Shown in pieces: positions 1 through 42,042 of a stretch of 42,042 nt of DNA (position 1 is its first letter; each line of letters opens with the position of its first letter). Source of the DNA: Escherichia phage Skarpretter; sequence record NC_048112.1. One strand, given 5' to 3'. Position numbers and translations under genes: made by a program. The notes under the pieces are model-generated. The model was given only the letters and a program-made list of their open reading frames with translations, was not told the origin of the DNA and searched no databases.

Positions 1-16
1 TAGCAAAAAGTGCTAT
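1..16 (-). promoter_or_regulatory. upstream half of the conserved promoter element (palindrome ATAGCAC-N4-TGCTA), truncated by window edge
   Basis: rc reads atagcactttttgcta, identical to the copy at 36884..36899; TATAGT half would lie beyond window start. Confidence 0.4.
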
Positions 17-42
17 CCAAAAAAAACGCCCCGGAGGGCGTT
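17..42 (-). terminator. rho-independent terminator after the 41..769 gene
   Basis: On minus strand: hairpin ACGCCC-tccgg-GGGCGT followed by T8; overlaps the stop codon of the 41..769 ORF. Confidence 0.7.
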
Positions 43-2552: not shown

Positions 2553-2996
2553 TTACGCCTTTTTGTTATCGGTTGAGCCAAAGCCGTTTGCGCCGCGTGC
2601 CGTTTTCTTTACGGTGTCAACTTCTGTTAACACTACGCGGGGCACTGGCACCAACATTGCCTGGGCTTGCGCTTTGGTGAGGTCGATCGGCGGATATTCG
2701 CCAGTAGGGCGATCGCATACCAGTTTGATCGCAACTTCTCCGGTGTAGTCTGAGTCAATGATCCCCACACAATTACTTAACCGGGTGTCGTTTTTGAAGC
2801 CCTGCCCGCTGCGGCTGTAAATCATCAGGGCGTAACCCTCCGGGATCTCGAAAACAAGCCCCGTTTCCAGGTAAATCGCGTTGTTGCGCTCGTCTGGCCT
2901 GGCGGCGATCGCGTAAATGTCGAAACATGCTGATCCCTCTGTTGCGTAGGTTGGCATTACTGCGTGGGGTGAGTTGCGCTTAACGTTTAACTGCAT
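2553..2996 (-). CDS. dut: dUTP diphosphatase (dUTPase)
   Basis: 147 aa; trimeric dUTPase motif GIIDSDYTGE, N-terminal PTYATEGSA; AGGAG SD. Confidence 0.85.
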   Translation of the reverse strand: MQLNVKRNSPHAVMPTYATEGSACFDIYAIAARPDERNNAIYLETGLVFEIPEGYALMIYSRSGQGFKNDTRLSNCVGIIDSDYTGEVAIKLVCDRPTGEYPPIDLTKAQAQAMLVPVPRVVLTEVDTVKKTARGANGFGSTDNKKA

Positions 2997-3011
2997 GGTT
3001 ATTTACTCCTG

Positions 3012-3036
3012 TTAAAAAGGGGGCCAAAGCCCCCAG
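3012..3036 (-). terminator. rho-independent terminator after SPFH gene
   Basis: Minus strand: GGGGGC-tttg-GCCCCC followed by TTTTT, between SPFH stop (3042) and dut start (2996). Confidence 0.7.
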
Positions 3037-3041
3037 GTTGT

Positions 3042-3893
3042 TTACTTAACGCTGATCATCGGGGTCGCTGCGCCGGGGATCATGGTTGCAGGTAATTTAC
3101 CATCCCACTTATCGGCTTTGGTGTATTCCACCAACTGCGGGTTAGCCTGCAACGCTTCGGATTTGGCTTTAATCGCTGCCGCTTCTGCGTCGCCTTTCAT
3201 CTTGATAGCGTCCGCCTCTGCCTGGGCGTTTGCACGTTTAGCATCGGCTGCGCCTTTTGCTTTGGTGCGGGCAATGTCTGCGCTGATCTGCTCTTTCTGC
3301 AAGTTCTGCTGTTGCGTGCGGATCTCGATCTCGGCTTTCATGTTCTCCTCGATCTTGTCGTTGTACTCTTTGGAGAATTGAACGTTTTCAATCTGCACGG
3401 AGTCGATCGTAAAGGCTTTGCTTACGCTGGCCTGCAAACCCTTCTGGAAGTCTGCCGCCAGGGCGTCACGCTTGATCACGCTGTCCGCTGCGGTGTACTT
3501 ACCAAAGGCCGATTGAAAACGGGCCGGAGCCTGGCGATCAATAATGCGCTCTACTGCGTTCTCCGCCGTGCGGTACTCGCTGTAAATGTAACCAACGCTC
3601 GCGGCTGGGATCGAGTAGGTCACGGAGTAACGCACCGTCGCGTGCTGCTGGTCGCGGCTGTTACCGTTGCCCTTTTCGAAAACGCGCGTATTCTGTTGCA
3701 CGCTGATTTTTTCCACGCTGTCCAGGAAAGGCGTTTTGAAGTGTAAGCCCGGCTCCGCCGTGCCAATCACCTTGCCGTTACGGAGGATTACGCCGCGCTC
3801 GCCCTGGTCGATAATGTACCAGCTACCCAGCGCCGCCATGAGGCCAATAATGATCAGGAGAATTAAACCGCCGCCAACAATCTTTAATTTCAT
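3042..3893 (-). CDS. SPFH/band-7 (HflC/HflK, prohibitin-like) membrane protein
   Basis: 283 aa; N-terminal TM helix (GGGLILLIIIGLMAALGSWYII), SPFH-like core, C-terminal Ala/Glu/Lys-rich coiled coil; own promoter element and own terminator. Confidence 0.75.
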   Translation of the reverse strand: MKLKIVGGGLILLIIIGLMAALGSWYIIDQGERGVILRNGKVIGTAEPGLHFKTPFLDSVEKISVQQNTRVFEKGNGNSRDQQHATVRYSVTYSIPAASVGYIYSEYRTAENAVERIIDRQAPARFQSAFGKYTAADSVIKRDALAADFQKGLQASVSKAFTIDSVQIENVQFSKEYNDKIEENMKAEIEIRTQQQNLQKEQISADIARTKAKGAADAKRANAQAEADAIKMKGDAEAAAIKAKSEALQANPQLVEYTKADKWDGKLPATMIPGAATPMISVK

Positions 3894-3937
3894 GGTGTTA
3901 CCCTTTTGTTTAATCCGGCACCGTTGCCGTGAGTTGA

Positions 3938-3982
3938 ACTATACACTTAAACGTGAATATCTGTTTTAGCAATTTGTGCTAT
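3938..3982 (-). promoter_or_regulatory. conserved promoter element driving SPFH gene
   Basis: Minus strand reads ATAGCACaaatTGCTAAA, 23 nt, TATAGT, tcaACTCAC, ~50 nt before ATG at 3893. Confidence 0.6.
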
Positions 3983-4035
3983 TTTATTAACTCCTGCATT
4001 TTTCTTTTGCGTTTACCTTAGCCAGCCAGCTAACA

Positions 4036-4066
4036 GCCGCCCCGTTTTGGACGCGGCTTTTTTTTA
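4036..4066 (+). terminator. possible rho-independent terminator (plus orientation)
   Basis: GCCGC-12 nt loop-GCGGC followed by T8; long loop, overlaps 3' end of the minus-strand primase gene. Confidence 0.35.
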
Positions 4067-4894
4067 CCCAAACGCCCCCACCAGATCCGCGCCAGCCATT
4101 ACCCGCCCGCAATCCCGGTATAAATAAACCTCGTCCGGGTCAAGCGCCACCATGCGGATCTCACGATCGCCAGTGTACCGCGCCGCAACCTCCCGGCAAT
4201 TCAGCGGAGTAAAGCCGATCCAGATCTCGCACCCCAGCGCCGGGCCTTTGTGCTCTGCCACTCGCACCGCCATTACCGGATCGCTGATAAGGTAGATTGG
4301 CCCATCTTCCAGCCCTTCGGCTGGGTGGATCATCGCAACCGCGCCCCAGGTGCGGAAACCTGCCGCAAACTTTACGGAGAAGTCAGGATCAACCCGCGCC
4401 AGATTGCAGAAGAAAGGCGACGCGCCAGCCTCGCCAACTTTCCGGCATGGTAGATAGGCTGATCCGGGCCTCCTCCCAGCGGTAGCCAGGTTTATTACGC
4501 GCTCGTGTGGGATCTCGGCACTGGCGGCACCCTGCTTTGATTTGGCAAGCGCTTTGGAGGCTTTGGCGATCTGATCCATCTTCGCCGGGGTCAGCCCGCC
4601 GATCCAATCCCCCAAATCATTTACCGCTTCGTTAAACTTCTGAGCGCGGGCACGCATAAACCAAAACATGCCGTCATGCGAGCCGCCGCAATCGCCGGAG
4701 CAATAGGCGAAACCCTCCTCACGCTGGCGCGGTTTCTTGTGCCCCCATCGGAAACGGTCAACGCCACCACATACCGGGCAAGCCTGGTGGTTGCCGTCAA
4801 ACGTCTTACGATCCCAGCCGCAAAGCTCCAATAAGGCTTGCTCCCAGCGGTTACGCATGGCGTTTAAAACTGTTTTCTTGTCGTGTATTGCCAT
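4064..4894 (-). CDS. DNA primase (zinc-ribbon plus TOPRIM-like)
   Basis: CPVCGG...CSGDCGG zinc-ribbon like primase Zn-binding domains; C-terminal acidic DPD motif (MVALDPDE) consistent with TOPRIM; likely ATG at 4894. Confidence 0.55.
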   Translation of the reverse strand: MAIHDKKTVLNAMRNRWEQALLELCGWDRKTFDGNHQACPVCGGVDRFRWGHKKPRQREEGFAYCSGDCGGSHDGMFWFMRARAQKFNEAVNDLGDWIGGLTPAKMDQIAKASKALAKSKQGAASAEIPHERVINLATAGRRPGSAYLPCRKVGEAGASPFFCNLARVDPDFSVKFAAGFRTWGAVAMIHPAEGLEDGPIYLISDPVMAVRVAEHKGPALGCEIWIGFTPLNCREVAARYTGDREIRMVALDPDEVYLYRDCGRVMAGADLVGAFG

Positions 4895-4916
4895 AATCAA
4901 CAAAGCCCGTTACTAT
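4888..4916 (+). promoter_or_regulatory. putative sigma70-type promoter for helicase operon
   Basis: TTGCCA-17 nt-TACTAT followed by a CTCAAAC element, ~40 nt upstream of helicase ATG. Confidence 0.35.
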
Positions 4917-4957
4917 TCACTCAAACGTGATTATGAATAAGCAGGAGACAAAACGCA

Positions 4958-6958
4958 ATGGTAATAACCCCCGTCAAGGAAACAAACTTTGCCTGGCAAC
5001 TCATGGAAACGATCGAGGAGCGCATAGCCCGCACGCCGATCGCGGAGTTAATGGCGAAATTTGGCCCAATGCCGCTTGATCCTTACCCGTACCAGTGGGC
5101 CGCTTATGAGGCGGTAGCGGAATGCCTGCGCAAGTACCCCGGCCCGATCATTGTCGAGGCCGCTGTAAGTGCTGGTAAAACGATCATGATCTCCATGCTG
5201 GCGCGGCGCATTGTCGAAATGAAACAACGGGCGCTGGTGATAAGCCGCCAGGCGGAGATCGTGGATCAGGACGCCACGGAGTTATGGAATTTTGACGTTA
5301 AAAACTCCGTGTTTTGCGCCGGGCTGAATAAGAAAAGCACGCATTACCCGGTGGTCTGCGGCTCGGAGAAAACCGTAGCCAACGCGATCGAGGGGAAGTT
5401 AAAAGACTTTGCCCCGCTCTTTCTGGTGATCGATGAATGCCACCAGGTAAACATTGACGATCTGATAGCCTCCGAAACTGCGGAGATCCTGGAGGTGATC
5501 GAGGAAAACGGCGAGCCTTACGAGCGCGTGCGCGTCGGGGAAACGCTGGAGGAAATGATCGCCAATAAGCGCAACTCCTACACGATAATCATTCGTGAAT
5601 TGCAAAGACGTTGCCAGGAGGTACACGGCACCCGCTTACGCGTGATCGGCTACACTGGCACGCCGTACCGGGGCACCGATTCGATCGTAAATGAGGACTA
5701 CGAAACGCCGGGTTTTTGGCGTAAGACGGTGATCCGCATTACAACGCCTTACCTGGTTAAAGTCGGCTCCGTTGTGCCAACGTTCTTTGGCTCCTCCGCG
5801 CTGGGTTACGATCTCTCTGAGTTTGACCAATTCAAGGAGGAGGGCTTAACGGACTTTAGCGACGAGCAATTAAAGGCCATGCAACGCAAGATAGCGCGTG
5901 AGAAGGATTTAACGCACGCAATCATGGCTGAGGTGTACGAGCTAACAAAACGCCGTAACGGCGTTCTGGTGACGTGCTCCGGCGTCGATCACTGCCACGA
6001 GGCCGCAAGCGCGTTACCGGAGGGCGTGACCTATGCGATCATCACGGAGAAAACCACAACCCGCGATCGAATGGACATTATCGCCGGGGCGAAATCCGGC
6101 GCGATAAAGTTTGTCTTTCAGGTCATGGCGCTTACAACTGGCGTTAACGTGCCACCCTGGGACACGTCCGTAATTCTGCGCCGTATCGGCTCGCTAACGC
6201 TGCTCGTGCAACTGCTGGGGCGCGGTATGCGCATTCTGAAAAAAGAGCATATAGCGGCGGGCATGGTGAAAAAAGATCACCTCGTTTTGGACTACTCCGG
6301 CACTATGGCGGCTATGGGTTCCCTGTTTGAAGATCCGATCCTGGAGGATTACACATACCAATCTGAGCAAGTGGGCGAGAAAACCAAAGAGTGCCCGGAC
6401 TGCTTAACGATGAATACAGAAAAGGCCCGCCGTTGCTCCGGGATCGTGAACGGTGAAAGGTGCTGGCATTTCTTCCAATCAAAGACCTGTGACGACGATG
6501 TAGACGGATCGACGGGTCGCATTCTCCGCCCAGGATGCGGGGCCGAAAATGACATAGTAGCCAAAAATTGCCGTTGCTGCGGTAAGCGGCTGATCGACTT
6601 TAACAAAAACCTGTCAGGCCAACATTACACGGAGGGGGATTATTGCAACGTGGTAGATTGGGAGCCGCAAGTAGGCCGGGGCGGCTCGTTTGCGATCCAG
6701 TACACGTTGGAGAAAGACGGGATCACGTTTAAGGCGTGGGAAATCCACTGGTTAACGTCCAACAATCCGGGCGCGTATCAGGTCTGGAAAACGTTTGTTA
6801 ATACCCACGTTTTCGACGAAACCGGACGTAAGACGCTGCGCAACTGCCGCACCCCGGAGGCGGTGTTAAAGAACGTGCATTACCTCATGAAGCCAAAGCG
6901 CGTTACGCACCGTAAGACGGGCGGCGGCAAAGATACCATTAACAAAAAGGTGTTTTGA
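4958..6958 (+). CDS. superfamily 2 DNA helicase (DEAH-type) with C-terminal Cys-rich zinc-binding region
   Basis: 666 aa; Walker A AVSAGKT, Walker B VIDECHQ, motif VI-like LLGRGMR; C-terminal CPDC...CRCCGK cluster. Confidence 0.8.
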   Translation: MVITPVKETNFAWQLMETIEERIARTPIAELMAKFGPMPLDPYPYQWAAYEAVAECLRKYPGPIIVEAAVSAGKTIMISMLARRIVEMKQRALVISRQAEIVDQDATELWNFDVKNSVFCAGLNKKSTHYPVVCGSEKTVANAIEGKLKDFAPLFLVIDECHQVNIDDLIASETAEILEVIEENGEPYERVRVGETLEEMIANKRNSYTIIIRELQRRCQEVHGTRLRVIGYTGTPYRGTDSIVNEDYETPGFWRKTVIRITTPYLVKVGSVVPTFFGSSALGYDLSEFDQFKEEGLTDFSDEQLKAMQRKIAREKDLTHAIMAEVYELTKRRNGVLVTCSGVDHCHEAASALPEGVTYAIITEKTTTRDRMDIIAGAKSGAIKFVFQVMALTTGVNVPPWDTSVILRRIGSLTLLVQLLGRGMRILKKEHIAAGMVKKDHLVLDYSGTMAAMGSLFEDPILEDYTYQSEQVGEKTKECPDCLTMNTEKARRCSGIVNGERCWHFFQSKTCDDDVDGSTGRILRPGCGAENDIVAKNCRCCGKRLIDFNKNLSGQHYTEGDYCNVVDWEPQVGRGGSFAIQYTLEKDGITFKAWEIHWLTSNNPGAYQVWKTFVNTHVFDETGRKTLRNCRTPEAVLKNVHYLMKPKRVTHRKTGGGKDTINKKVF

Positions 6959-10342: not shown

Positions 10343-10346
10343 ATAA

Positions 10347-10372
10347 GGGGCCATAGCGGCCCCTTTTTTTTT
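10347..10372 (+). terminator. rho-independent terminator, likely bidirectional
   Basis: GGGGCC-atagc-GGCCCC followed by T9; lies between convergent HTH gene and tailspike gene. Confidence 0.8.
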
Positions 10373-12678: not shown

Positions 12679-12699
12679 TAAAAAAGGGGCCGTAGCCCC
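12679..12699 (-). terminator. rho-independent terminator after ejection-protein gene
   Basis: Minus strand GGGGC-tacg-GCCCC followed by TTTTTT. Confidence 0.7.
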
Positions 12700-12704
12700 T
12701 TCGT

Positions 12705-20718: not shown

Positions 20719-20741
20719 TAAAAAAAGGGGCCGTAGCCCCT
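20719..20741 (-). terminator. rho-independent terminator after coat gene
   Basis: Minus strand GGGGC-tacg-GCCCC followed by T7. Confidence 0.75.
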
Positions 20742-20776
20742 TTATACACGAAACAATCAGGTTAATCACCTATGCC

Positions 20777-22051
20777 TTACGGCGTCGGCGCAACCTGGTT
20801 TGCGATCTCGATGCCTACATATTCCGGCACCAGGACGGACACGCCATACAGTGTAGTAAAGCGGGCCGTGGTTTTCCCGGTGATGTGGTTGAACGCGTAG
20901 GACATGATCAGGGTTGCGCCCTGCTTAGTCGTCGCGGTCATAACCTGCGGGCCTTGTCCGGTTGGGAATGCGAGTTTCCCGTACATCACCTCTACGGAGC
21001 CGTCAGCCCACAAAATGTTGGTGTTAGCTGCCACGGTGTTGATAACGGTCAGCGCTGCGCCGGAGGCCGGGTTAGCGGTTACGTTAGCATACGGGCGGCT
21101 CGGCTCGTCGGCGTTGTCCAGCGGGAGGATCTTCGGCGCAATGGTAATGGTGTTGCCACTAACTGCCAGCACGCGGAAAACCTGCTCTTTGTCGGTCGTC
21201 GCTTTGCCGATCAGGTGTACCATATCCACACCCTCGATCGTGAATGCGTCGCCCTGCTGCAAGCCGTGGGAGGCGGAAACCGTGATCGTGCCGTAGCGGT
21301 TATCTACTGGCATGTTGCTTACCGCGTCCATTGCTTCGACTTTGTGAGCCGGAGCCGCCGCCAGGGTGATCGCCGCTGCGGAGCCAGTAGGCACGCGCCC
21401 GGTTTGATCCACTTTGTAGGAGTCGAACGACGCCACGTTAGGGATCTGCGCACGTTCCCACGCGGCCTGGTTGATGCCGGAGGAGTAAGAGCGGCCCGCC
21501 AGTTCACCCGCCAGATCTTTATAATCGTAGGCGTTGAAGAAAGCGCGTTTAGTGATGCCCATCGGCACGCCGATCATGGTGAAATCGGCGTCAAGCTCTG
21601 CCGCACCATCCCAAAGATCTTTGCCTTTGGTGCCAGTGGAGTTATCGCCAACGGCTTTAACGTTGGTTGCCCAGCGGGAAGCCTCTACAACGGTGTCATA
21701 GTCGATCTTCGCTGCGAGGCGCTGGCCTGCTGCGCGGCCTGCGTCGGTTTTGTGCTCCGGGTCGCGCATTTCGCGGGCGTCCAGGGTGTACAGGATGTTT
21801 TGCGGCTCTTTAAAAGTCGCTGGCACCTGGCGCTGGACAAGCTCGGTTTGCGCTGCGGAGGTCAGATCCAGACCTTCCACAATATCCATGTGGTAGTGCT
21901 GCGGACGCCATACGGTATCGCCTGCACGCTGCATGGCGGTGTCGTCAGGTCGGAATTTCTTTGCCTGGCGTGATACTACGCAAGCGGCCTCAAAGCCTTC
22001 TACGTAGTTCTCGAACATAATTTCGAGGTCTTTCGTTAACTGGTTAGCCAT
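20777..22051 (-). CDS. major capsid (coat) protein, P22 gp5-like
   Basis: 424 aa; ITVSASHGLQQGDAFTIEGV (P22 [20 protein letters not shown]), PYANV, NILWADGSVEVM (P22 NVFWADDAIRIV). Confidence 0.85.
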   Translation of the reverse strand: MANQLTKDLEIMFENYVEGFEAACVVSRQAKKFRPDDTAMQRAGDTVWRPQHYHMDIVEGLDLTSAAQTELVQRQVPATFKEPQNILYTLDAREMRDPEHKTDAGRAAGQRLAAKIDYDTVVEASRWATNVKAVGDNSTGTKGKDLWDGAAELDADFTMIGVPMGITKRAFFNAYDYKDLAGELAGRSYSSGINQAAWERAQIPNVASFDSYKVDQTGRVPTGSAAAITLAAAPAHKVEAMDAVSNMPVDNRYGTITVSASHGLQQGDAFTIEGVDMVHLIGKATTDKEQVFRVLAVSGNTITIAPKILPLDNADEPSRPYANVTANPASGAALTVINTVAANTNILWADGSVEVMYGKLAFPTGQGPQVMTATTKQGATLIMSYAFNHITGKTTARFTTLYGVSVLVPEYVGIEIANQVAPTP

Positions 22052-26428: not shown

Positions 26429-26478
26429 TCTCGGCGCTCCCCTTGTTGATTCTGGCAAAGTCTAACATGATGCGAAAA

Positions 26479-26522
26479 ATAGCACGAATTGCTAAAGCAT
26501 TTCACGTTAAAGTGATTATAGT
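26479..26522 (+). promoter_or_regulatory. conserved promoter element driving the 3-gene cassette
   Basis: ATAGCACgaatTGCTAAA, 22 nt, TATAGT, aatCTCACAttcac, ~35 nt before ATG at 26557. Confidence 0.6.
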
Positions 26523-26556
26523 AATCTCACATTCACGAACAAATGAGGGCTTTAAA

Positions 26557-27124: not shown

Positions 27125-27152
27125 AACAGGGGCCATTGCGGCCCCTTTTGCG
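27125..27152 (+). terminator. rho-independent terminator (bidirectional position)
   Basis: GGGGCC-attgc-GGCCCC followed by TTTTG; between convergent cassette and terL 3' end. Confidence 0.7.
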
Positions 27153-33401: not shown

Positions 33402-34973
33402 TCAGCGTTCAGCCAGCGGCGGCGGCGATGCGTCGTTAGCCGTCAAAATCTCCTCGCCGTCATTGTTGATAAACGAGCGGATCAGCTGCTTTTTGATCGC
33501 GTTCTCGATCGAGCGCTTGATCTGGTATGGCGTTTTCGCGGTGCGCTCCGCCATTTGGTTTGTGGTGTCCATGCGTTCATGCTGCCCGCCGCGTGCCATG
33601 AGGAAATCGATCACGTCCTGCTCGCTGTTGCTCGGCCTGGTGAGTCTCGGATCTGGCTTGTTCTTCGACTCGCCGCGCTGCGCTTTCTTCTGCTCCTCCT
33701 GCTGCGCTACCAGTTCAGCGGCTAACGTCGCCTCGTCCACCAGTTCGCACGCGTTCAGGTAGCCACCACAAAACAGCGGGTCAATCGGGTTAAGTCCTTT
33801 CAGCGGCTGCGCTGGGCGGATCGAATCCTCAAACTCTGCGAGATATTCCGCCCGGTGCGCTTCTGCTTCGTCGTCCGGGAAGATCTGCATTGTCCGTTTA
33901 GTCAGGCGCAAGAGTTGGGCGATCCCCCCACCACGGCGCTTGCCTGCTGCCATGATGATTTTATCCGGCTGGGTTTTGTCCTGCGTGAGCGAAAACGTTT
34001 TCCAAACCGCACCCTTTGCCGCGCCACCTCCGCGTGACTCCAGCACGAGATAAGGCGATCGCTCGGCCTCCTTGCTTACGTGGGGAATGAAGATCCCGCA
34101 CGCTCCCAGCGCCAGGGCAAAGCGATAACCGCAAAACGTAATGTACTGCTGATCGTCGTTGCTGTTTTCGTCCAGGGGTTTACCGTTGCGCTCGGCGCTG
34201 GATAGGTGAAAACTCTTTGAGTCATAAACAACCATGCACACCTGGCGATCCCCGGCAAAGTCTTTGATCTGGCGGATCTGGCGTAATGCGTTCTCACCCC
34301 ATACCGGGCGATCGAGTTGTACGACGCGCTCAACCTCGCGCCCGTCCGGGCCGATCTCTTTCACGGTCTTAACTTTGGTTGTGTCGGTCAGCGCTGCGGG
34401 GTGCTCGCAGATCAGGACGTGATCCAGGATGTTTTCGCCCCACTCCAGTTGCCAGGCGGAAAGGCAGTTAGTGACGGTTTCGGCGTCCTCGGTAAAAAAC
34501 ACGCTGATCCCTTTCTTCACCATGAAAGCATCCAGGAAAGGTCTACCCGTTGCCACGCACGCCGCCAGCATGGACAAGAGCGTAGTTTTGCCCACGCCTG
34601 GCCCGGCGTTGATCTCGTTGATCGTGTTCATGTTAAACAGGTATTGCACAAACGGCTTTGGGATCTTCGGTTTCGGGTTCTCAATGAATACGGAGGCGGG
34701 CTTACGCTCCGGCTTTGGCTGCTGCGGGCCTGCGTCCTCGTTGTCCGGCTCGTCCACCTGCTCGGAGTGATCGGCAAGGCGTGCTAACTCCGCGTCGCTA
34801 TAGTCGGGAGCCTGCGCCGCTAACCACTCCTCCGGCATGTCCGGCACGGTGTCGCCCAACTCTCCCCAGGTCTGCATGTCCTCGTAATCCGGCTCGAATT
34901 GCTCCGGCTCCGGGGTTGGCTCCTGCTGCTGTAAAGAGCCGTTGCCACGGTGTTTTGTGGGGTCGAATTTCAT
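33402..34973 (-). CDS. P-loop NTPase (RecA/DnaB-like Walker A), possible replicative ATPase/helicase
   Basis: 523 aa; acidic disordered N-terminus, Walker A NAGPGVGKTTL, Walker B-like VCMVVYDS; first gene of leftward operon. Confidence 0.65.
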   Translation of the reverse strand: MKFDPTKHRGNGSLQQQEPTPEPEQFEPDYEDMQTWGELGDTVPDMPEEWLAAQAPDYSDAELARLADHSEQVDEPDNEDAGPQQPKPERKPASVFIENPKPKIPKPFVQYLFNMNTINEINAGPGVGKTTLLSMLAACVATGRPFLDAFMVKKGISVFFTEDAETVTNCLSAWQLEWGENILDHVLICEHPAALTDTTKVKTVKEIGPDGREVERVVQLDRPVWGENALRQIRQIKDFAGDRQVCMVVYDSKSFHLSSAERNGKPLDENSNDDQQYITFCGYRFALALGACGIFIPHVSKEAERSPYLVLESRGGGAAKGAVWKTFSLTQDKTQPDKIIMAAGKRRGGGIAQLLRLTKRTMQIFPDDEAEAHRAEYLAEFEDSIRPAQPLKGLNPIDPLFCGGYLNACELVDEATLAAELVAQQEEQKKAQRGESKNKPDPRLTRPSNSEQDVIDFLMARGGQHERMDTTNQMAERTAKTPYQIKRSIENAIKKQLIRSFINNDGEEILTANDASPPPLAER

Positions 34974-35061: not shown

Positions 35062-35074
35062 AAGTTTTGTGTGA

Positions 35075-35118
35075 ATAGCACGAATTGCTAAAACAGCTTT
35101 ATGAATACTATGTATAGT
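35075..35118 (+). promoter_or_regulatory. conserved promoter element driving plus-strand island
   Basis: ATAGCACgaatTGCTAAA, 22 nt, TATAGT, tatCTCACAccaac, 32 nt before ATG at 35151. Confidence 0.6.
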
Positions 35119-35150
35119 TATCTCACACCAACGAATTGAGGCAAAACAAA

Positions 35151-35696: not shown

Positions 35697-35710
35697 CTCC
35701 GGGGCGGCGA

Positions 35711-35754
35711 ATAGCACGAATTGCTAAACGCCGCGTCTAAATACTATGTATAGT
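35711..35754 (+). promoter_or_regulatory. conserved promoter element
   Basis: ATAGCACgaatTGCTAAA, 22 nt, TATAGT, tatCTCACAccaac, before ATG 35788. Confidence 0.6.
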
Positions 35755-35787
35755 TATCTCACACCAACAAACAACGGAGTAAACGAA

Positions 35788-36431: not shown

Positions 36432-36887
36432 ATGAAACCACAAGAGATCAAAAAGGCGGGCATCTTCTCAAAGGATGATATTCACTGCTTCACTGACTGC
36501 GGCTACAACTGCAAGGCAAAGGTAAGGGCTGATCTTGAGGCGCATTACGCGCCAATCGCTGCGGCGCTGGGTAACGGCTGGCGCGTTAACATCTGGCACA
36601 ACGGCGGCTGGCACGCTAACCTGGCGCATGATGAATCACAATTTTACCTGAGCGATCGAGCGGTGCGCGGCGGTATCAGTGCAATGAAGGTGGACGCCGA
36701 TCGGTTTGAGGACAACGTAAACCGCTTTGAGGTGTTCAATTACGAATACCCGGAGGGCACCAGCCAGGTTTGGGTGTACGGTAACGATCCGAAAGACGCG
36801 ATCCGCAACGCCTTTAACGCCGTGTCGGAGCGGGTAGTAGCCTACATGGTGCAACAACAAAAGATCCTGGACGCTTTCCCCGGATAG
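36432..36887 (+). CDS. hypothetical protein
   Basis: 151 aa, Trp/Asn/Gly-rich; stop codon lies inside next promoter palindrome. Confidence 0.55.
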   Translation: MKPQEIKKAGIFSKDDIHCFTDCGYNCKAKVRADLEAHYAPIAAALGNGWRVNIWHNGGWHANLAHDESQFYLSDRAVRGGISAMKVDADRFEDNVNRFEVFNYEYPEGTSQVWVYGNDPKDAIRNAFNAVSERVVAYMVQQQKILDAFPG

Positions 36888-36927
36888 CACTTTTTGCTAA
36901 ACGCTCCTCGTAAATACTTGGTATAGT
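36884..36927 (+). promoter_or_regulatory. conserved promoter element
   Basis: ATAGCACttttTGCTAAA, 22 nt, TATAGT, tctTTCACAccaac, before ATG 36959. Confidence 0.6.
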
Positions 36928-36958
36928 TCTTTCACACCAACACGAGGAGCGAAACAAA

Positions 36959-39282: not shown

Positions 39283-39833
39283 TGTGGGGCGCGATCCTGG
39301 CCCTCCTGCGCCGATACTGGAAGCCGATCGCCGTAATCCTCCTCGTGCTGCTGGCGCTGGGGGGATCTTACCTTAAAGGCTCGGCTGATAAGGATCAGGA
39401 ATGGCAAGCGCGATGGACACAACGCGATCTGGACGATTCCACCCAGAAAGGGATCGATAATGTAGCCGCCCGGATAATTGAACAAGGCCGGGCCATTGAA
39501 CGCCAGGAGGCGATCGAGGATGCACAAAAACGGGAAGCCGCCGCGCTGGCTGCTGCTGATCGGTTGCGTGGTACTGTTGACGGCCTGCAACAACTCGCCA
39601 ACAAATACGCGGCCCAACTGGACGCCCAGCGGGCAACCACTGATCTTGCCGCTGCCGTCGCAAGCAAAACAAAAGCCCAGGGGGCCGGAGTGCTCGCCGT
39701 CATGCTCGGAAGCGTTGCAAAGGAAGCTGAATATTATGCTAAACGATCTGACGAAAGCTACGACGCCGGGCTAACCTGCGAGCGGCTTTACGAGTCGGTG
39801 AGGGTGACGCAAGAAAAAGTCAAGGGGCCATAA
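39282..39833 (+). CDS. Rz: i-spanin (Rz-like)
   Basis: 183 aa; N-terminal TM helix, periplasmic coiled-coil; TAATG coupling with R. Confidence 0.7.
   Translation: MWGAILALLRRYWKPIAVILLVLLALGGSYLKGSADKDQEWQARWTQRDLDDSTQKGIDNVAARIIEQGRAIERQEAIEDAQKREAAALAAADRLRGTVDGLQQLANKYAAQLDAQRATTDLAAAVASKTKAQGAGVLAVMLGSVAKEAEYYAKRSDESYDAGLTCERLYESVRVTQEKVKGP
39520..39774 (+). CDS. Rz1: o-spanin (Rz1-like) lipoprotein embedded in +1 frame of Rz
   Basis: ~84 aa from internal ATG; signal peptide with lipobox (LIGC / LTAC), Pro-rich mature region. Confidence 0.55.
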   Translation: MHKNGKPPRWLLLIGCVVLLTACNNSPTNTRPNWTPSGQPLILPLPSQAKQKPRGPECSPSCSEALQRKLNIMLNDLTKATTPG

Positions 39834-39848
39834 CGGCCCCTTTTTTTA
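39822..39848 (+). terminator. rho-independent terminator (bidirectional position)
   Basis: GGGGCC-ataac-GGCCCC followed by T7; between Rz and convergent Ig-like gene. Confidence 0.8.
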
Positions 39849-41162: not shown

Positions 41163-41419
41163 AAGCCTTTAAGCCTCTTTGGGTTGTGGTTGGTTTTAAT
41201 GGCGGCTTTAAACTCCGCCTTTGTCTGCTGCGTGCCGGGAACGATCCGCACGTAACGCTGGGGTTTATTGTGTAAGAAGGTGCAAACCCCGTCTTTGATT
41301 ACTGCAATGTCGGCTATGTCGCCGTCAAACGCGGCGGAGATCCGCTTTATGTCCTCCGCCATGCCTGCGGCTTTCACCGCCTCCCATACCTCCGCCTTAC
41401 TGCCGTTTTTGTAATGCAC
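41159..41419 (-). CDS. hypothetical protein
   Basis: 86-aa ORF in coupled operon. Confidence 0.5.
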   Translation of the reverse strand: MHYKNGSKAEVWEAVKAAGMAEDIKRISAAFDGDIADIAVIKDGVCTFLHNKPQRYVRIVPGTQQTKAEFKAAIKTNHNPKRLKGL

Positions 41420-41795
41420 GGGTTAACGCCTCCGCGTGCCGGACAACCCGATCGCACGTCTCCACATCAAACAACCCTATGTGGCATTGCGATTTGGGGA
41501 TCTCCAGGAGTTTAGCGAGCCACGCGTAAGCCTGACTCCGTTTCTTCCATCCGTTGCGCCAGATAGGATCAAAGGCCGCATGAGCCTTGTTACGGGCGCG
41601 TTTTGTCGCTTTGTCCGCCGTATTCCCCAGCGGGCGATCGGTGTCTTTGTGGCAACCCACGCTGGCACCGCACGGGCAAATGTAGCATTTCAGGTGATGC
41701 AAATCCGGGCGTTTTGGGTAAAGCGCTGCGGCACTGCTCAAAACTGCGGAGGCAACGCCCCCGCAAATTGCACAATCAATGGCTTTATTTTCCAT
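41397..41795 (-). CDS. zinc-finger (Cys-rich) hypothetical protein
   Basis: ~133 aa from ATG at 41795; CAICGG...CYICPCG...CH Cys clusters. Confidence 0.5.
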   Translation of the reverse strand: MENKAIDCAICGGVASAVLSSAAALYPKRPDLHHLKCYICPCGASVGCHKDTDRPLGNTADKATKRARNKAHAAFDPIWRNGWKKRSQAYAWLAKLLEIPKSQCHIGLFDVETCDRVVRHAEALTRALQKRQ

Positions 41796-42000
41796 ATGCA
41801 CCCCGCAAAGCGTCGCGGGCGTTTTCTTCGGCCTGGGCCGCTTCACGTTTCAGGGCGGCAACTGCTGCCGGGCCTGCATGGTACATTTTCAGGCGGTTAC
41901 GGAGACGGCAAGCCAGATCCGCCAGCACATGAGCCTGAGCCAGTAACAGCGGGGAAACGATCTGCGCTTTGTTGCTTTTGGTGATTAGTAAAGTTTGCAT
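41785..42000 (-). CDS. hypothetical protein
   Basis: ~71 aa from ATG at 42000 with GAGGAG SD, directly downstream of promoter element at window edge. Confidence 0.45.
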   Translation of the reverse strand: MQTLLITKSNKAQIVSPLLLAQAHVLADLACRLRNRLKMYHAGPAAVAALKREAAQAEENARDALRGAYGK

Positions 42001-42013
42001 CGTTGTTGCTCCT

Positions 42014-42042
42014 CTTGTTGGTGTGAGGTCACTATACAAAGT
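42014..42042 (-). promoter_or_regulatory. downstream half of conserved promoter element (TATAGT-N3-CTCACACCAAC), truncated by window edge
   Basis: Minus strand reads tatagtgacCTCACAccaac then GAGGAG SD and ATG at 42000. Confidence 0.5.

Follow-up and report, generated by a model that had tools for sequence, protein, structure and literature searches.

SPFH proteins form membrane-associated cages whose structures have been solved in rapid succession (HflKC, prohibitin, erlin, stomatin, flotillin and QmcA), but their physiological roles in bacteria are still vague. Escherichia coli HflK and HflC (PDB 7VHP, 7WI3 and 9CZ1) share a build consisting of a transmembrane (TM) segment, an SPFH domain, a coiled coil and a C-terminal cap. 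HflC has an N-in orientation, with its SPFH domain in the periplasm. HflKC is known to enclose the periplasmic domains of FtsH (PMC12048511). The eukaryotic PHB1/PHB2 prohibitins and erlins (PDB 8RRH, 9O9Z and 9VVG) are organellar hetero-oligomers, and bacteria carry stand-alone 'prohibitin family' proteins of ~293 residues encoded by chromosomal housekeeping genes. In addition, SPFH/Band_7 open reading frames (ORFs) have been reported in the T4-like phages 44RR, Aeh1 and RB43 (PMC1524935) and in Vi01-like phages (PMC3220722). Here we describe an SPFH gene in a 42,042-nucleotide (nt) stretch of DNA from Escherichia phage Skarpretter (NC_048112.1; the whole stretch is hereafter referred to as the window). 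The gene is genuine, full-length and selectively maintained, and sequence comparison with related phages identifies it as an accessory cassette lodged between a resident promoter and the dUTPase–Dam operon. The SPFH annotation is correct and genes of this type have already been annotated in many phages; the locus is not a new system. Its product may form a cage on the periplasmic face of the host inner membrane.

The SPFH coding sequence (3042..3893, minus strand), taken from the ORF list and examined with Pfam, PHROG, AlphaFold2 (AF2) and dN/dS analyses, starts with an ATG located 8–9 nt downstream of the ribosome-binding site (RBS) AAGGG and encodes 283 residues. The original prediction, which proposed an SPFH/Band_7 membrane protein encoded in the replication arm, holds on both points. 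A profile search matched Pfam Band_7 (PF01145) over its full length (residues 27–201, profile positions 2–175 of 176; E = 5.2e-33; score 115 bits, cut-off 23.6), and the gene belongs to the replication arm, flanked by a Zn-ribbon primase-like gene on one side and by the dUTPase and Dam genes on the other. PHROG family phrog_200 matches almost the entire chain (residues 2–282, E = 1.5e-56). All 15 pairwise comparisons gave dN/dS values of 0.10–0.30, indicating that the gene is functional. Three plus-strand ORFs within the gene (3082..3381, 3312..3746 and 3667..3969) are regarded as shadows of the SPFH frame.

An AF2 model built from an alignment of 30 sequences (mean pLDDT 80.8) comprises a membrane helix (residues 3–22), an SPFH α/β domain (24–173) and a single long helix (175–250). 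The model thus contains the membrane anchor, the SPFH domain and the long coiled-coil helix, here ~75 residues, that make up the architecture of cage subunits. For the annotated coding sequence, the TM helix is placed at about residues 3–25 and the SPFH domain at 27–173. The alignment of 30 homologues has 66 invariant columns, and these homologues share a C-terminal tail, W-x-G-x-x-P-x-T (263–278), in which W263, G265, P268, T270 and P278 are invariant. The last 30 residues are of low confidence in the monomer model; such conservation, combined with low pLDDT in a monomer, would fit a tail whose folding requires oligomerisation. The hydrophobic helix has two lysines, Lys2 and Lys4, on its N-terminal side and a stretch of 15 residues with a net charge of 0 on its C-terminal side. 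Together with the GERG motif that comes next, the TM helix aligns position by position with residues 5–40 of HflC. On these grounds the SPFH domain is expected to face the periplasm, in an N-in/C-out orientation like that of HflC. The PHROG 200 label 'lipoprotein' was rejected, as the 283-residue translation contains no cysteine and hence no lipobox, and the N terminus is accordingly an uncleaved anchor rather than a lipoprotein signal.

The modelled fold places the protein in the cage-forming SPFH class and picks no subfamily within it. A Foldseek search of the PDB returned HflC, PHB1, erlin, HflK, QmcA, stomatin and flotillin with probability 1.0 and ~20% identity over ~250–300 columns, the top matches being HflC (7vhq_G, 3.6e-15) and PHB1 (4.6e-15). 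The prohibitins and erlins match along the whole chain (5e-15 to 1e-13) and resemble the phage protein in length (~270–300 residues) and N-terminal anchor, but their identity to it is ~19–21% and orthology is not established. The best sequence matches in the PDB are likewise weak (HflC, 5e-11; HflK, 4e-10; QmcA, 5.5e-7; prohibitin, 6e-6).

Sequence, unlike fold, discriminates among the subfamilies. The protein misses the equivalog cut-offs for HflK (52.8 bits against 159.4 for TIGR01933; 39.7 against 660 for PRK10930) and for HflC (48.6 against 134.4 for TIGR01932; 48.6 against 427 for PRK11029). Compared with HflK and HflC, to which it is ~20% identical, it lacks a heterodimeric partner, the HflK N-terminal domain and the HflC insertion. 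The hflK–hflC gene pairing is absent, with a lone SPFH gene between primase and dUTPase here and in all relatives that carry it, and neither neighbour in the window, the primase-like gene (PF08273) or dUTPase/Dam, is an NfeD-family partner. By sequence, orthology to HflK or HflC can be dismissed, given scores far below both NCBIfam cut-offs and a single gene with no partner. The earlier description 'HflC/HflK-like' is therefore apt at the level of the superfamily, and fails at the level of the equivalog families, the nearest kin being the stand-alone prohibitin family at ~50% identity. HflK Arg191 has been quoted, after Qiao et al., as an FtsH-contacting residue (PMC12048511); an attempt to map it was abandoned, as the PDB sequence has arginines at 185 and 193, the corresponding R125 and Q127 of the query are unconserved, and the alignment has a four-residue gap.

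Among 2122 homologues at E ≤ 1e-10, the nearest come from a handful of ~41–42-kb phage-like contigs (62–99% identity), followed by chromosomal 'prohibitin family' or 'SPFH domain-containing' proteins from Shewanella, Cellvibrio, Dokdonella, Arenimonas, Pseudomonas and Brucella (46–53% identity over 92–100% of the length). The bacterial stand-alone proteins share with the phage protein the GERGV and SRDQQ motifs and the tail W-[DN]-G-x-L-P-x-T, and are likewise encoded by single genes, but their cytoplasmic N-terminal extension is 10–20 residues longer. We found no NfeD, HflK/HflC or FtsH gene adjoining these bacterial loci, which are single genes with no fixed partner. On this evidence we assign the protein to the stand-alone bacterial 'prohibitin family protein' group and to PHROG 200. 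A single-sequence scan of representative bacterial genomes gave no close relative, and an alignment-based scan reached at most 52% identity, with no Enterobacteriaceae in the best 80 species matches. The phage thus seems to bring an SPFH type that is absent from its likely hosts. A suggested connection to defence operons found no support, as none of the PADLOC-DB defence families matched the SPFH protein at E ≤ 0.01.

The region upstream of the gene contains a promoter-like element of ~62 nt, ATAGCAC-N4-TTGCTA-N22/23-TATAGT-N7-TCAC, which includes the palindrome TAGCA-N5-TGCTA. The copy in front of SPFH, P1 (3924..3985, minus strand), has ATAGCAC at 3982..3976, TTGCTA at 3972..3967, TATAGT at 3943..3938 and TCAC at ~3933..3930. 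Four further copies lie on the plus strand (26476–26537, 35072–35133, 35708–35769 and 36881–36942), and a sixth, on the minus strand, is divided by the window ends (18..1 joined to 42042..42002). A 20-mer from the element has four matches in the window, against none expected in 100 shuffles. Downstream of TATAGT, the consensus reads TCAC(A)CCAAC before the RBS, and each copy has, 36–50 nt beyond TATAGT, an RBS and a co-oriented ATG; by this arrangement, the six copies behave as a class of phage promoters. A generic sigma-70 scan detected no consensus promoter on the minus strand upstream of SPFH at the scan thresholds, and a plain −35/−10 promoter was dropped as a candidate because the TTGCTA-to-TATAGT spacing of 22–23 nt is too long. 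The element resembles instead a good −10 paired with a dimeric-regulator site, the centre of which lies near −42.

Hungariovirus C130_2 also has this element, upstream of dUTPase and with no SPFH gene present. In the window, the stretch of ~170 nt that precedes SPFH is homologous to the primase–dUTPase spacer of C130_2, including an A8-hairpin, GTTAGCTGGCTGGCTAA and the ATAGCAC...TTGCTA...TATAGT element, and the homology stops just past TCAC. Beyond this point the window contains a GC hairpin (3932..3915), the RBS, the SPFH gene, a second GC hairpin with T5, and the dUTPase RBS. Since the element precedes dUTPase even in a phage without SPFH, we interpret P1 as the resident promoter of the dUTPase–Dam operon, behind which SPFH has slotted in as an accessory cassette. 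Among relatives, only those bearing SPFH have the GC hairpin in the 5′ untranslated region (UTR) (CGGCA-ACGG-TGCCG, 3915..3932, minus strand; folding energy of the UTR −8.7 kcal/mol by RNAfold). Its sequence differs in the metagenomic contigs L011, L017, L013 and L015 and in Kosakonia phage Kc166B, and it is likely to delimit the cassette on the upstream side; its covariation is weak (four pairs and one compensatory change, in a short and misaligned alignment).

At the other end of the cassette, a terminator scan identified a hairpin, GGGGGC-TTTG-GCCCCC followed by T5 (3012..3034, minus strand; RNAfold, −14.1 kcal/mol). The stem GGGGGCTTTGGCCCCC spans 3034..3019 and the T-run 3018..3014. The limits originally drawn for the unit, 3012 and 3982, thus coincide with real features, the former lying just past the T-run and the latter being the first base of ATAGCAC. 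The dUTPase gene (2553..2996, minus strand; ORF list and annotation in relatives) follows directly, its RBS AGGAG (3010..3006) beginning 3 nt beyond the T-run and its ATG at 2996. The sigma-70 scan gave no promoter-like match on the minus strand between 3042 and 2996 or in the 3′ end of SPFH, and none of the six element copies precedes dUTPase, Dam or the genes beyond. With no promoter before dUTPase and no room between its RBS and the T-run, dUTPase–Dam transcription must continue past the SPFH hairpin. In six of six SPFH-bearing relatives a hairpin occupies this position, with differing stem sequences. The T-run reaches T5 in the window and L011 only; L013 and L017 have a weak one, and Kc166B and L015 have none. 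The SPFH gene is therefore probably not monocistronic, and the hairpin with T5 may be a partial terminator or 3′ stabiliser that enriches SPFH mRNA.

These observations alter the earlier picture of a monocistronic, self-contained unit with its own promoter and terminator. A promoter-like element upstream and a terminator-like hairpin downstream are indeed present; however, the promoter is resident and has no sigma-70 consensus, and self-containment does not survive the homology of the upstream region to the C130_2 spacer, the position of the dUTPase RBS 3 nt past the T-run, or the absence of the T-run in Kc166B-type relatives. Phage morons, as defined for HK97/HK022-type phages, are promoter–gene–terminator accessory units. 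The SPFH cassette resembles them as an accessory gene between two conserved genes, polymorphic among relatives and furnished with its own 3′ hairpin terminator, but differs in that it uses the resident operon promoter, the downstream genes need read-through, and the phage appears virulent; for the last reason it does not appear to be a lysogenic-conversion gene expressed from a prophage. An autonomous moron was rejected on the same three features that speak against self-containment.

The layout of hairpin, T-run and next RBS recurs after the ORF at 20777..22051, in a stretch matching the capsid, scaffold and portal genes of C130_2, where read-through is obviously required. The window has two small families of near-identical GC hairpin plus T-run terminators, GGGGCC-N4-GGCCCC, with members at 20721–20742 and 12680–12701 on the minus strand and at 10345–10370, 27127–27152 and 39822–39847 on the plus strand. 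Those after the capsid-region gene (20777..22051) and after a 977-residue gene are intra-operon and stand directly before the next gene, which points to a systematic use of attenuating terminators for the control of mRNA ratios.

The distribution of the cassette was compared across the phage group. The slot order primase–SPFH–dUTPase–Dam is identical in Kc166B and six metagenomic relatives, whereas in C130_2, phage STP9, L020/L021 and Sortsne-like phages the primase gene is followed directly by dUTPase or, in three loci, by Dam; the cassette is thus present in two lineages of the group and missing from two others. The slot after the primase varies across the phage group, the IMG/VR contigs L022, L023 and L025 and the Sortsne loci L004/L024 included, and holds SPFH and dUTPase, dUTPase only, or neither. 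The site just behind P1 seems to be a hotspot of accessory-gene gain and loss. In a neighbour-joining (NJ) tree without bootstrap, the SPFH proteins of the window and Kc166B lineages are each other's closest relatives. Their identity of 65–68% contrasts with that of the primase (30%), dUTPase (40–43%), Dam (46–48%) and helicase (50–54%), and the intermediate C130_2 and Sortsne lineages have no SPFH gene. Either the gene is strongly constrained and has been lost repeatedly, or the cassette has passed laterally from one lineage to another. A comparison of the window with L011, its closest relative, shows SPFH (dS 0.585, dN 0.094) to be more diverged than the adjacent dUTPase gene (dS 0.116, dN 0.012), which suggests local mosaicism or recombination at the cassette.

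A tblastn search detected homologues in at least 62 deposited phage records, including jumbo Mimasvirus-type, Rhizobium, Agrobacterium N4-like and Alteromonas phages, and the family occurs in N4-like, jumbo and T7-like phages as well as in the podophage group of the window. The closest deposited phage protein is QQV88665 of Kc166B, annotated as a 'membrane protease family protein' (65% identity), others being 40–48% identical; metagenome assemblies contain matches at 99% and 87%. The PHROG 200 proteins of Kc166B, Pasto (gp11), RHEph10 (gp165), GAP32 (GAP32_025) and CBB (CBB_29) are of the same family and build, with ~280–290 residues and a single N-terminal TM segment, and Kc166B has its gene at the identical genome position, primase–SPFH–dUTPase. 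Relative to these phages, the window protein is a new sequence driven by a lineage-specific promoter element. Pasto gp11 is annotated as an 'SPFH-domain membrane protein', with N4 gp20 also cited in the annotation. The SPFH sequences of Pasto, GAP32/CBB, RHEph10 and AD45-P1 occupy separate deep branches interleaved with bacterial sequences in the same NJ tree, which is suggestive of several independent captures by phages.

The phage homologues are typically found in early or replication regions, with nucleotide-metabolism genes as frequent neighbours. In RHEph10 (L042) the SPFH gene stands among thymidylate synthase, dUTPase and thymidylate kinase genes, in Alteromonas phage AD45-P1 (L044) it lies between ThyX and ligase genes, and the window repeats this neighbourhood with dUTPase (2553–3893). 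Such recurrence may reflect a shared early or middle module only. No partner gene is conserved across the unrelated phages, the neighbours being small hypothetical or membrane ORFs and nucleotide-metabolism genes. Homologues occur in the unrelated GAP32, RHEph10, AD45-P1 and N4-like phages, and most such phages have no annotated lysogeny genes; in Rhizobium phage Pasto, the SPFH gene adjoins an annotated tyrosine integrase. In GAP32, the homologue is followed by an annotated terminator. CBB_29, which is 40% identical to the window protein, was detected with eight unique peptides (29.6% coverage) by ESI-MS/MS of purified CBB particles (PMC5259590). This detection, the sole experimental result that we found for phage SPFH genes, shows that a homologue is expressed; true virion association is doubtful for a membrane-anchored scaffold.

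We propose that SPFH would head the leftward dUTPase–Dam operon, with transcription from P1 in the early or middle phase, and that the hairpin with T5, as a partial terminator or 3′ stabiliser, would keep SPFH mRNA in excess over that of the downstream genes. The protein would insert N-in/C-out into the inner membrane, as HflC does, and on the periplasmic face its copies would assemble to form a homo-oligomeric ring or cage. This cage would fence a membrane patch with its client or clients, restricting or reorganising access to a host inner-membrane client in lytic infection. By analogy with the characterised cages, we consider the prospects of such a scaffold corralling a host membrane client during lytic growth to be evenly balanced. 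FtsH, on the analogy with HflKC, would be the single most likely client, an identification that we hold only tentatively. A broader form of the proposal, in which unrelated phages build their own periplasm-facing homomeric SPFH cage to commandeer or seal off FtsH or another essential inner-membrane machine, is conceivable but rather doubtful; here, the compact unit of 5′ UTR hairpin, gene and hairpin would have landed precisely between a regulator-dependent promoter and the first gene of its operon.

Several points weigh against the corralling scaffold. Its oligomerisation, topology and client are drawn by homology from solved cages at ~20% identity, P1 and the hairpin are a putative promoter and terminator, and nothing in this analysis ties the protein to FtsH specifically. 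Moreover, the positions nearest the quoted FtsH contact of HflK are not conserved in the family, in a mapping that is itself unreliable. We found no functional study in the literature on phage-encoded, anti-phage or superinfection SPFH proteins, and a 2026 paper states that the reason for an SPFH gene in a phage genome 'remains unclear' (PMC13239085). Deletion of SPFH paralogues in Pseudomonas aeruginosa gave no detectable phenotype (PMC13086221), and effects may therefore be subtle. The original prediction had also invoked the control of lambda CII by FtsH. This rationale is weak, with no integrase annotated in C130_2 or found among ten window ORFs, and a CII-type purpose is unlikely because the phage group has no lysogeny genes and appears lytic.

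Other explanations make different use of the same evidence. The protein could mimic or compete with HflKC, its homomeric cage capturing FtsH hexamers or displacing HflKC and altering proteolysis, whereby the phage holin, spanin or other membrane proteins would be protected, for example. Phages are known to target FtsH, as lambda CIII does. In addition, HflC and HflK are the best PDB sequence matches, HflC is the best Foldseek match, the predicted type II topology is that of HflC, and HflKC is described as enclosing FtsH periplasmic domains (PMC12048511). We nonetheless think this unlikely: both equivalog cut-offs are missed by a wide margin, the alignment has gaps in place of the HflK N-terminal extension and the HflC insertion, there is one gene rather than a pair, and prohibitin, erlin and QmcA match structurally about equally well; furthermore, no CII-like or lysogeny module is annotated in C130_2, and the bacterial orthologues are unlinked to ftsH. 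A scaffold facing the periplasm early in infection might alternatively exclude superinfecting phages by occluding inner-membrane components used by incoming DNA. We know of no superinfection-exclusion protein that is an SPFH protein, and the ~50% full-length identity to housekeeping bacterial orthologues speaks for an activity conserved in cells and not for a blocker peculiar to phages; the lack of a PADLOC model match also counts against exclusion. We rate this role as improbable, even though the gene is polymorphic in presence and has a promoter-proximal, moron-like layout with a terminator, the SPFH genes of Pasto and GAP32 lie among early genes for small membrane proteins, the SPFH gene of the Vi01-like phage PhiSH19 adjoins an annotated superinfection-exclusion gene (PMC3220722), and the authors of PMC13239085 speculate on adsorption or DNA entry.

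A role in membrane integrity or lysis timing, in which the scaffold would stabilise the energised membrane or arrange the holin or respiratory complexes, thereby preventing early lysis and maximising the burst, strikes us as similarly improbable. SPFH proteins organise membranes in general, aerobic respiration and the tolerance of aminoglycoside or oxidative stress are reported to be influenced by HflKC (PMC12005517 and PMC10434171), and the SPFH gene of RHEph10 lies 1.5 kb from rIIA, annotated as a 'protector from prophage-induced early lysis'; however, the gene is not near the lysis cassette in the window, and proximity to rIIA in one phage is anecdotal. Very little probability attaches to a virion-associated protein, whether structural or ejected. 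Its support is the recovery of CBB_29, annotated as a 'structural protein', from purified particles with eight unique peptides (PMC5259590). The gene lies in the replication arm rather than among head or tail genes, its product has a membrane anchor and housekeeping bacterial orthologues, and close relatives of the window phage do without it. Megadalton SPFH cages or membrane vesicles could, moreover, co-purify with virions. We regard as equally far-fetched a recently captured host gene that hitch-hikes with no role in infection, for which its dispensability in related phages and the silent Pseudomonas SPFH deletions (PMC13086221) could be cited. The gene is intact in two lineages at 65–68% identity where flanking core genes fall to 30–54%, its dN/dS values are low, and homologues lie on separate deep branches in unrelated phage families.

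The window is a ~42-kb phage genome with a GC content of about 55%. A megablast search of positions 2900–4100 against phages matched 40 nt of dUTPase only, with no close deposited DNA relative. Its gene order is that of Kc166B, Hungariovirus C130_2 and Sortsnevirus, with divergent primase and helicase–VRR-NUC–ExoVIII–Erf–SSB replication arms followed by tail, head and terminase genes, and enterobacterial hosts are reported for relatives in the group. No integrase or CI-type repressor is annotated in C130_2, and none was found among ten further window ORFs tested; the group thus looks virulent. The window ends (1–18 and 42002–42042) split one copy of the promoter element, and ~16 nt of the usual TTGCTA–TATAGT spacer are absent at the junction. 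With one copy divided between its two ends, the window looks like a nearly complete genome that is circularly permuted or end-trimmed. The terminal repeats of C130_2 are 284 bp long. Early or accessory regions of the window further encode a 523-residue AAA_25-domain protein (33402–34973, minus strand; E = 1.9e-9) and a DUF3268 zinc-finger protein (41397–41846, minus strand; E = 3.5e-33). A DUF3268 protein is also listed for PhiSH19, which has an SPFH/Band_7 ORF (PMC3220722).

The primase-like gene upstream of the cassette (4064..4903, minus strand; Zn_Ribbon_Prim, PF08273, E = 3.9e-6) borders the slot in all relatives. Directly after its stop lies a hairpin (4036..4065, plus strand; −11.7 kcal/mol on the plus strand and −15.7 on the minus strand) with T8 at 4058–4065 on the plus strand, opposite to the genes, so that the gene strand reads A8-hairpin-UGUUAG. 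The A7–8 run and hairpin are kept in eight of eight relatives compared, even where they overlap the primase coding sequence in Kc166B. As an intrinsic terminator, this hairpin would stop antisense (plus-strand) transcription into the primase gene; no plus-strand promoter feeding it was found. An Rfam scan of 2800–5100 gave a sub-threshold GcvB match (3886–4065, plus strand; 20.6 bits against a gathering threshold of 42, E = 0.1), which lies antisense to the intergenic region upstream of SPFH, stops at the T8 terminator and is probably due to chance.

As an experimental system the phage group is small and tractable: the genome is 42 kb long, variants with SPFH and variants lacking it occur naturally, the promoter is defined, and enterobacterial hosts have been reported for relatives. 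It could reveal the use that a virus makes of an SPFH scaffold and the identity of the host client. Were that client FtsH, the cassette would represent a new phage route to the control of host proteolysis. If the broader proposal is correct, a phage-built SPFH cage would constitute a so-far undescribed class of host-takeover or exclusion factor.

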